A stretch of 64,000 bases of DNA from Blastocatellia bacterium (GCA_963765495.1 CAVXWP010000001.1:1024001-1088000), one strand, 5' to 3'; positions 50,235-50,875 are shown, counted from the first letter of the stretch. Made by a program: numbers and translations. Notes: generated by a model from the sequence alone, not told the origin.

Positions 50235-50831
50235 CTTCCAGCATCACGTTTCCGTGACCTCCCTCATCGGGGTTGCTGGCTGGACCATTTCTTCGCCATT
50301 TCAGGCGGCGGGCGTATGGCCTCTACGCATCCCTTCATCCAAGGTTTGCTCGGAGTTGTCGTAGGAGGTGTACTCCCTTACGAGATTCTCCGAAATAGCC
50401 CGCTCCAGTTCTGCGGTTTTACCGAGGATTTGCAGTCTTTGAGAGAATTTGCCTCTGCACCGGGCAGAACAACAGGTAAAGGCAGTGCCTTTTTGCAAAA
50501 AGGTTTGACCTTTTCTTCTCTCGAAGATCAGACCACATTCCGGGCATTTCAAAACAACCATTTTTCGTCCGTGTTCGAAGTGATGTTTGCGAACGTGTTC
50601 GCCGTTGTTCATCACCTCAAGGTTTTCAATCCGGTTGTCTTTCTTATCCCGGTTTTTATGGTGCACAACTTCATCGGGATTGAGAAGCCTGCCAAGGTGA
50701 TTCTCGACTACGACTCTATGTTCCAGCACATAGCCATTAGCAGAAGCCTGCGGATGTCCAGAAACAAGAGCGTAGTTGTAATCTCCCTTGTGGATGATCT
50801 TCTCAATCTTCCACACAGAACGCTCCTATTG
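50235..50831 (-). ncRNA. Group I self-splicing intron (IC3-like), 597 nt
   Basis: 5' exon ends in U, intron ends in G; P1 CUUC/GGAG with U.G; P2 GUUCUGUG/CGCAGAAC; P3 GCGGGC/GCCCGC; P4 UCGGAG/CUCCGA; P7 GGCCAU/AUGGUC with AAGA J8/7; UCACG-GAAA-CGUGA in P9. Confidence 0.9.
50301..50816 (-). CDS. Intron-encoded HNH homing endonuclease with C-terminal Cys cluster
   Basis: [31 protein letters not shown]...CCSARC. Confidence 0.9.
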
Positions 50832-50875
50832 AAGTCCGTTGCTCTATCCATCTGAGCTACGGGCGCAAAATAAAA

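Follow-up and report, generated by a model that had tools for sequence, protein, structure and literature searches.

A tRNA-Arg(UCU) group I intron whose guide sequence may double as ribosome-binding site for an HNH endonuclease gene starting in its P2 helix

Results

A split tRNA-Arg(UCU) gene and the group I intron within it

The window, a 64,000-nt stretch of DNA from a Blastocatellia bacterium, carries on its minus strand a tRNA-Pro(UGG) gene (50952-50876) and, beginning nine bases further on, a split tRNA-Arg(UCU) gene (Table 1). When joined, the two exons give the anticodon loop CUUCUAA of tRNA-Arg(UCU), which is interrupted between U34 and C35; the 3′ exon opens at C50234 with CUAA-UCCGU, directly after G50235. 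The homologues described below were called by ARAGORN, run with its intron option, as tRNA-Arg(tct) with an intron at position 35/36. No second tRNA-Arg(UCU) was found, with the intron option off, among the 49 tRNA genes of the host genome, which is 97.9% complete. The split gene is the host's sole tRNA-Arg(UCU), and the intron would therefore have to splice. Among sequencing runs, the share of sampled words that was present was 0.47 in the best DNA run and at most 0.05 in the RNA runs.

Table 1 Features of the split tRNA gene, its intron and the intron ORF (positions counted in the window; "paired" is the share of paired cells in alignment A2)
Feature	Position	Strand	Basis or remark
tRNA-Arg(UCU) 5′ exon	50866..50832	-	Last bases ...ACGGA CUU, U34 = 50832; sequence and exon alignment
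tRNA-Arg(UCU) 3′ exon	50234..50196	-	First bases CUAAUCCGU; sequence and exon alignment
Group I intron, 597 nt	50831..50235	-	C50831 to terminal G (omega-G) 50235; exon bounds and core covariation
Guide UAGGAG	50828..50823	-	GAG with exon CUU, P1; UAG with 3′ exon CUA, P10; AGGAG is SD-like
P2 5′ strand GUUCUGUG	50821..50814	-	Anchored pairing count in homologues
GUG start of the HNH ORF	50816..50814	-	Last 3 nt of the P2 5′ strand
HNH homing-endonuclease ORF, 171 aa	50816..50301	-	Body in the P2 loop; last 38 codons are ribozyme core
P2 3′ strand CGCAGAAC	50415..50408	-	Spans codon 134 third base, codons 135-136 and codon 137 first base
P3	50403-50398 / 50313-50308	-	99.7% paired; encloses P4, P5, P5a, P6 and P6a
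P4	50393-50388 / 50355-50350	-	97.8% paired
P5	50383-50379 / 50363-50359	-	P5a alongside; window structure
P6	50349-50348 / 50328-50327	-	100% paired
P6a	50344-50341 / 50335-50332	-	Window structure
P7	50321-50316 / 50288-50283	-	98.6% paired; canonical pseudoknot with P3
P8	50307-50304 / 50297-50294	-	100% paired
P9	50279-50275 / 50242-50238	-	99.3% paired; P9 domain 50279-50238 includes P9a
P9b	50257-50253 / 50248-50244	-	GAAA loop; 100% paired

Homologues were drawn from several searches. Among the matches listed, a DNA search of 60 relatives gave 19 loci beyond the window's own: 12 carry an intron at U34|C35, five of them ORF-less (214-259 nt) and seven with an ORF (603-666 nt), and the remainder comprise two introns inserted two bases further on, three intron-less loci and two loci cut by contig ends. 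A protein-guided scan of metagenome contigs added 80 further loci, and another contig scan returned mostly distant HNH genes and, as tRNA-Arg introns, only L022 and L023. The 80 metagenome loci, L022 and the window were filtered to 61 distinct introns with both exon halves. Left out of this set were duplicate sequences, the loci L023, L028 and L156, in which an anchor is absent, and 11 loci whose exon pair fails the strict pattern. Three of the latter (L115, L121 and L180) do contain the intron, but their exon or splice-site bases deviate; the other eight (L027, L111, L132, L133, L137, L141, L167 and L181) lack the ribozyme. L175, whose 5′ exon is cut by a contig end, was omitted only from the 60-row alignment (A2) used for the ribozyme core.

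The helices of the window were written onto A2 as structure, and paired cells were counted. The core helices lie in canonical order and are backed by covariation, both sides changing in 43 of 62 pairs. Pairing was observed in 85.4% of cells, against 38-48% in slid controls, and none of 500 shuffles scored as high. The A2 counts for P1 (80%) and P2 (52.5%) are low because MAFFT offsets the 7-bp and 8-bp classes by one column; P2 was recounted from fixed anchors, GGAGC on one side and UGGAG on the other. The U.G pair at the 5′ splice site together with the terminal G before CUAA is present in 61/61 homologous introns, and so are exon CUU and guide GAG.

The Rfam group I model, RF00028, had no match in 50150-50960 at E<=10, none in the window at the gathering score and none in 14 related loci at E up to 0.01. 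We took this miss as a gap in model coverage, because the structural features of a group I intron are present, and the structural evidence argues strongly that the element is a group I intron nonetheless. The result shows that the Rfam model overlooks a widespread tRNA intron family; with these introns missed, tRNA-Arg(UCU) appears to be absent from genome annotations.

The guide sequence is fixed by the anticodon loop

A reading made beforehand from the sequence alone (hereafter the sequence-only reading) had written the 5′ splice region as CUU|CAAUAGGAGCGUUCUGUG, the exact minus-strand sequence of 50834..50814, and had placed GGAG on the 3′ strand of P1, where it supplies the splice-site U.G pair. 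Indeed, GGAG 50826-50823 pairs with exon CUU through C50834-G50823, U50833-A50824 and U50832.G50825, and intron C50831 pairs with G50826. In P10, CUA 50234-50232 of the 3′ exon pairs with UAG 50828-50826, and UAGGAG as a whole, with wobble pairing allowed, complements the ligated loop CUU|CUA. The full UAGGAGC is present in 25/61 introns. GGAGC is present in 61/61 HNH-type introns and also in 12/12 related introns at the same site that have no ORF in P2; in L018 and L021, which are inserted two bases further on, the guide is UUGGAC. These comparisons indicate that the Shine-Dalgarno (SD)-like motif is set by the target site, a sequence with a chance likeness to the anti-SD. Since GGAG is dictated by the anticodon loop and is present without a P2 ORF, the motif alone is no evidence of selection for an SD.

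AGGAG (50827-50823) is separated from GUG 50816 by a spacer of 6 nt. The host 16S rRNA ends in CACCUCCUUUCU / GGAUCACCUCCUUUCU, and its 3′ end has CCUCC, complementary to AGGAG. Across 3418 long ORFs of the genome, GGAG peaks 5-9 nt before the first start (103, 128, 133, 143 and 106 occurrences), and an SD-like 4-mer lies at -16..-4 in 35.3% of these ORFs versus 9.4% for a control window. The description of AGGAG as a correctly spaced SD stands for the spacing, which falls within the host peak; for the function, the motif by itself is no evidence, the anticodon loop forcing GGAG. The base after GGAG is an invariant C, unlike the G of an ideal SD. Moreover, the spacing of 5-6 nt corresponds to the length of the P2 stem, and stems of 7-8 bp are found also in introns that initiate elsewhere, so the spacing may be structural.

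Relatives of the nuclease gene that lack the ribozyme and stand beside an intact tRNA-Arg(UCU) gene have GGAG or GGAGG 4-7 nt before the start in L111, L132 and L133. By inspection, the motifs read ACGGAG-UUUCU-AUG in L132, GAGGAGC-GUUUUU-GUG in L133 and AAAGGAGG-AUUU-AUG in L111. Taken with the host data, the comparisons make a dual use of GGAG plausible, and we judge it likely, while leaving considerable room for doubt, that GGAG serves as an SD.

The start codon lies in a conserved, covarying P2

The P2 assignment of the sequence-only reading, 50821-50814 with 50415-50408, holds as a helix of 8 bp with one G.U. Within it, GUG 50816-50814 pairs with CGC 50415-50413, which is the third base of codon 134 and the first two bases of codon 135. 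In every intron, the 5′ strand of P2 follows GGAGC immediately and extends to the codon that precedes the invariant TGG (W2), and its partner strand ends directly before UGGAG (J2/3). Counted from these anchors over the 61 distinct homologous introns, 423/450 P2 cells (94.0%) are paired, against 34.7-53.1% when the partner is slid by 1-3 nt and a mean of 54.7% (maximum 61.6%) over 1000 partner shuffles. Among the 61 introns, 48 different P2 helices occur, with covariation between the start codon and its partner: ATG faces CAT; GTG faces CAC, CGC or TGC; TTG faces CAA.

The introns fall into two forms. In the compact form (n=45), 15-24 nt separate the 5′ splice site from the codon, and a start stands at the P2 site in 44/45: 23 ATG, 19 GTG and 2 TTG, that is, GTG or TTG in 21/44. 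The spacer after GGAG is 5 nt in 24 of the compact introns and 6 nt in 21, and the start codon is fully paired in 36/44. In the form with an insertion in the P1 loop (n=16), the distance is 39-72 nt and only 4/16 have a start at the P2 site; in 15/16 an in-frame ATG lies 12-36 nt upstream, no stop intervenes, and the ORF read from this ATG crosses the guide sequence. An SD-like motif precedes this upstream ATG in only 4/15. The difference in starts at the P2 site (44/45 versus 4/16) gives a Fisher p of 1.3e-8, a statistic that ignores shared ancestry.

In the window, an in-frame TAG occupies intron nt 4-6 and excludes upstream initiation, and the next in-frame start, 29 codons downstream, would lose the invariant stretch W2-P22; GUG 50816 is therefore the start, as the sequence-only reading had it. 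The homologues agree, with ATG, GTG or TTG at the same site in 44/45 compact introns and an invariant W2 behind it. The shared layout, with the start codon in P2 after GGAG, is by this comparison a family trait. The further claim that a splicing-competent fold hides both translation signals gains support as well, GGAG being paired in P1 and the start codon in the conserved, covarying P2; both would be hidden in a folded precursor.

The minimum-free-energy fold of the whole precursor recovered the P1 hairpin and most core helices; the long-range P2 was absent from it. A local hairpin in that fold, between the 5′ strand of the anticodon stem and the 5′ strand of P2, was dropped, as both strands, judged by eye, vary freely across the homologues. 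Predicted duplex energies were -0.8 kcal/mol for P1 alone, -5.6 kcal/mol for SD:anti-SD and -9.5 kcal/mol for P2. The predicted probability that the start codon is unpaired was 0.2-0.8 for transcripts of 60-440 nt and 0.05-0.15 for those of 470 and 600 nt, the predicted folds of which contain both P1 and P2. For GGAG, ViennaRNA predicted a mostly paired state already in short nascent transcripts. The 3′ strand of P2 is transcribed ~400 nt after the start codon, and the 5′ splice site lies 15 nt upstream of it.

An HNH reading frame that runs through the ribozyme core

The ORF matches the Pfam family HNH_3 (PF13392) with E 1.5e-11 and 44.1 bits, the cut-off being 24.8. Residues H52, H53, N61, N65 and H78 are invariant among 31 sequences, and the window ORF is intact with all family-invariant residues present. 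A PDB sequence search gave no significant match to solved HNH enzymes and returned only an unrelated zinc-finger protein. Over codons 2-133, entropy was 0.93, 0.72 and 1.38 at positions 1, 2 and 3; the third-position excess points to protein-type, purifying selection on this part of the ORF.

The last 38 codons run through P2′, J2/3, P3, J3/4, P4, P5/P5a, P4′, P6/P6a, J6/7, P7, P3′ and the 5′ strand of P8, and the stop UGA 50303-50301 opens loop L8, giving an ORF/core overlap of ~115 nt. With the ORF running through P2′, P3-P7 and P3′ to L8, the conflict between splicing and translation would be far wider than P1/P2. The frame passes P2′ into the core in 57/60 aligned introns: the stop lies in P6/P6a in 27 of the 60, in J6/7 in 8, in L8 in 7, and in P5/P5a, the P7 3′ strand and P9 in 5 each, and 3 have an early stop inside the ORF body.

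Over codons 134-171, entropy was 0.84, 0.68 and 0.83, and the periodicity is absent. In an AlphaFold2 model built on 31 sequences, the prediction is confident up to roughly residue 150, and pLDDT is <50 at 157-171. The part that P2′-P5 encode is modelled with a helix (135-142) and a strand (145-150); RNA constraint on the alignment may inflate the confidence there. Free-standing relatives retain the helix motif A-I-x-x-N with other codons, and the shortest of the intact ORFs extend to codons 152-153. Because of the modelled helix and strand, the motif kept with other codons and the length of the shortest ORFs, residues 134-150 look dual-coded, and the remainder looks like a passenger tail.

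Signs of mobility and related nucleases

At the level of DNA, the ORF part of the query had no match in the 60 relatives among the matches listed. The protein was found in 1/151 sampled genomes of the phylum at E <= 1e-25, the window's own genome. In the acceptor stem, T arm and D stem, the window's exons show no difference from those of family relatives. They depart from them in the anticodon stem and the base that follows it, with ACGGA/UCCGU-A versus CCUGC/GCAGG-G in the relatives, and there they match those of the HNH-type introns L102 and L116. This pattern is as would be expected from co-conversion during homing. The free-standing relatives of the nuclease adjoin intact tRNA-Arg(UCU) genes. 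Nucleases of other kinds occur in this intron in the relatives, placed in a different loop with P2 left intact: LAGLIDADG enzymes in L004 and L006, and PD-(D/E)XK enzymes (PDDEXK_5, E 1e-40) in L005, L008, L013, L014 and L016.

Discussion

Comparison with the homologues supports an anatomy in which an HNH gene sits in the P2 loop of a tRNA-Arg(UCU) group I intron and its start region is merged with the substrate-recognition elements of the putative ribozyme. From this anatomy we infer a splice-versus-translate switch. GGAG, which would be needed to hold exon C32-U33-U34 in P1 and C35 in P10, sits where host ribosomes would expect an SD. In a growing transcript, the SD/start region would emerge ~400 nt before the P2 partner and ~500 nt before the core is complete, and a 30S subunit could load only while the RNA is nascent or unfolded. 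The span that a 30S initiation complex protects takes in 15 nt upstream of the start. A bound 30S would cover the 5′ splice site, and with that site inside its footprint, ribosome loading and P1 docking would be mutually exclusive. An elongating ribosome would then unwind the RNA from P2′ to P8. Once the last ribosome has gone, P2 may form and P1 dock, hiding the start codon and GGAG, and the folded RNA would splice to give the essential tRNA. The RNA thus probably either splices or is translated, not both at once; splicing would be the default, and each transcript would be expected to give nuclease only in a brief burst that limits itself. The explanation as a whole, from the HNH gene in the P2 loop and its merged start region to a switch acting on nascent RNA, is in our view quite probable.

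The sequence-only reading had confined translation to misfolded precursor or to excised intron once P1 is lost. As the main source of nuclease, we regard this pair of templates as quite improbable. Excised group I introns can persist in cells, and by its structure excision would remove the exon strand of P1 and free GGAG. P2, however, lies wholly inside the intron and stays after excision: its 8 bp (-9.5 kcal/mol) remain, the start codon, with its unpaired probability of 0.05-0.15, would be hidden, and 115 nt of folded core would likewise need unwinding. As excision frees GGAG but not the start codon, and as P2′ is made ~400 nt after the latter, the nascent transcript is a likelier template than the excised intron. 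It is also conceivable, though barely credible, that the element does not function as a group I intron at all and is instead a decayed insertion that kills the tRNA gene, or else a different type of intron. The silence of RF00028 in the window and the 14 related loci would fit this, but all core helices covary, the U.G pair and terminal G are invariant, the ORF is intact with every family-invariant residue, and the interrupted gene is the genome's sole tRNA-Arg(UCU).

A more serious objection concerns the SD itself. The likeness could be a functionless by-product, with GGAG acting as guide only, the start placed in P2 for compactness, and the nuclease made without help from an SD or hardly made at all. 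GGAGC does persist in all 12 related introns without a P2 ORF and is followed by an invariant C; introns with upstream starts have P2 stems of equal length and thus equal spacing; most upstream ATGs of the P1-insertion introns do without an SD-like motif; and nearly half of the compact introns (21/44) use GTG or TTG. Yet the host uses SDs at exactly such spacing, and in 44/45 compact introns the start occupies the last 3 nt of the stem, the sole place in P2 or its loop within SD range. Ribozyme-less relatives, L111 among them, keep or even improve the motif, and the ORF appears to be under purifying selection. On balance we think a mere by-product rather unlikely, and prefer the reading in which the guide also recruits ribosomes to nascent RNA.

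A bolder version of the preferred reading, which we put forward as doubtful, is that the anticodon loop CUUCU mimics the anti-SD CCUCC, in which case four intron bases would be contested between the exon and the 16S 3′ end. For each transcript, the balance between nuclease and the sole AGA-decoding tRNA would then depend on how many free 30S subunits are available. Were this true, it would explain how an HNH gene could settle in the P2 of this intron without a ribosome site of its own, and residues 134-150 and the core from P2′ to P5 would be truly dual-coded.

Sequestration of translation signals in mobile introns is already known, and the present case is a variant form of it. In the Ll.LtrB group II intron, LtrA binds a region that contains its own SD and start codon, limiting its own synthesis. 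As in the window, the start region of the intron protein lies within a functional intron RNA element; in Ll.LtrB, a group II intron, occlusion is by protein, and here it would be by ribozyme helices. The best structural match of our protein model is weak (Foldseek E 0.05, TM 0.31, 18% identity): I-HmuI from a group I intron of phage SPO1, which like the window protein is an intron-borne HNH enzyme.

For group I introns, the excerpted text of one review (PMC3073962) describes ribosome sites of intron ORFs that are sequestered in structure, non-AUG starts, and ORF/core overlaps of 9-81 nt. Its Table 1 lists the tRNA-fMet intron of Synechocystis PCC 6803, where the I-Ssp6803I ORF lies in P1 with a 61-nt overlap with P1/P2 (PMC3073962). 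As far as these excerpts describe it, that intron resembles ours in being a bacterial group I intron in a tRNA anticodon loop with an endonuclease ORF overlapping the 5′ recognition helices, and our P1-insertion variants, whose ORF passes through the guide sequence, come close to its arrangement. I-Ssp6803I, however, is a PD-(D/E)XK enzyme with its ORF in P1, unlike the HNH enzyme with its ORF in P2 here, and the excerpts do not describe its guide as a ribosome site or its ORF as running through the catalytic core. In the T4 td intron, according to the same excerpts, the ribosome site of I-TevI lies in a hairpin, ribosomes in the core impair splicing, and the 3′ end of the ORF overlaps P6a/P7 (PMC3073962, citing Gibb & Edgell 2010). 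Translation signals hidden by RNA structure and an ORF 3′ end overlapping the core are thus common to td and the window; td, as described there, uses a dedicated local hairpin in the P6 loop and a 20-nt overlap, whereas here the ribozyme's own P1 and P2 would serve and the overlap from P2′ to L8 is ~115 nt.

Interrupted tRNA-Arg-TCT genes without an ORF are on record for Beggiatoa and Thiomargarita, according to a passage of PMC4853749 (citing MacGregor 2013). The ORF-less tRNA-Arg(UCU) introns found here (L003, L010, L011, L012 and L015) share the site, the GGAGC guide and the core with the window; unlike in the window, their P2 holds no ORF, being a short hairpin with 8-10 bp and a ~9-nt loop. 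A c-di-GMP-dependent group I ribozyme of Clostridioides difficile offers a case in which intron chemistry decides whether a ribosome site is usable (PMC3984707, in excerpt). There, on that excerpt, the choice of splice site makes or removes the ribosome site of a downstream host gene, whereas here the guide is the candidate site for the intron's own gene. In the main text of open-access papers, we found neither a guide sequence described as an SD nor an HNH gene reported from a tRNA-Arg intron.

Mobile introns must express their nuclease without harming the interrupted host gene, and the known solutions are dedicated hairpins, weak starts and protein autoregulation. Here the recognition helices P1 and P2 would themselves act as the translational off-switch, with a frame that spans the entire catalytic core, which would be the tightest merging of coding and catalytic RNA that we found described for a bacterial group I intron. 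This arrangement, located in a tRNA gene that is both essential and single-copy, is repeated in at least 45 distinct environmental introns. As a simple and testable system, it lends itself to studying how ribosome loading competes with RNA folding kinetics, how one RNA codes for both protein and ribozyme, and how a homing gene adapts to its host intron.

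Exon sequence around the intron and traces of homing

Outside the anticodon stem and a single base next to it, the tRNA exons of the window match those of family relatives (L003–L016). In that stem and at that base they are instead identical to the exons flanking other HNH-type introns (L102/L116), a pattern which looks like a short co-conversion tract left by homing. Divergent from the tRNA pair lies an ORF whose translation contains tyrosine-integrase-type motifs (HDLRHT and MRYV) near the C-terminus; this putative integrase gene may mark a tRNA-linked island.

In the related introns at L018 and L021, from other families of the same class, the insertion site is shifted 3' by two bases and follows CUUCU; the guide there is UUGGAC, not GGAG. 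A second GGAG, within UGGAG, forms J2/3, the segment following the 3' strand of P2, in the window intron and in most homologous introns.

Features in and beside the intron-containing tRNA-Arg(UCU) gene of the window
Feature	Position	Strand	Remark
tRNA-Arg(UCU) exons	50196-50234 and 50832-50866		
J2/3 (UGGAG)	50403-50407		
375-aa ORF, integrase-like motifs	51126-52253	+	divergent from tRNA-Pro/tRNA-Arg pair

HNH genes without a ribozyme and ribozymes without an intact HNH gene

Homologues of the HNH gene that lack a ribozyme core were found at seven loci (L132, L141, L181, L133, L156, L167 and L111). Each lies right next to a tRNA-Arg(UCU) gene or an anticodon-loop-like remnant, or extends into one; an intact tRNA was called at L132, L141 and L181. 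In L132, L133 and L181, the HNH ORF is still preceded by residual 5' exon and guide sequence.

In the HNH-type intron of an Anaerolineae MAG (L023), the ORF has an internal deletion, and its reading frame is broken after about codon 72. Since this intron retains its core, the P2 helix (GUUCUAUG/CAUAGAAC) and the ORF's start codon, the nuclease gene is decaying within a preserved ribozyme. The HNH ORF of L171 carries an in-frame TGA at codon 55 and is conserved over the rest of its length; it could be a pseudogene, or TGA could be a sense codon in its host.

Detection by covariance models

The Rfam group I model (RF00028) did not recognize this intron family at window positions 50150-50960 or at 14 related loci, and tRNA-Arg(UCU) therefore seems to be absent in standard tRNA scans. 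The sole match to the model in the window's own genome (L001, contig C6, near 43227-43353) is weak, scoring 24.9 bits, below the cut-off, and directly precedes a tRNA 3' half. ARAGORN found no tRNA-Leu(UAA) in this genome. L001 therefore probably represents another group I intron in a tRNA gene, the second in this genome.

Three nuclease families in one intron family

At the insertion site of the window intron, the tRNA-Arg(UCU) introns of relatives carry other nucleases: a LAGLIDADG enzyme in L004 and L006, and a PD-(D/E)XK enzyme (PDDEXK_5) in L005, L008, L013, L014 and L016. Both kinds of gene occupy a loop other than P2, which stays a short hairpin in all seven introns. Because LAGLIDADG and PD-(D/E)XK nucleases are found besides the HNH gene, a single intron family has been invaded independently by three nuclease families.
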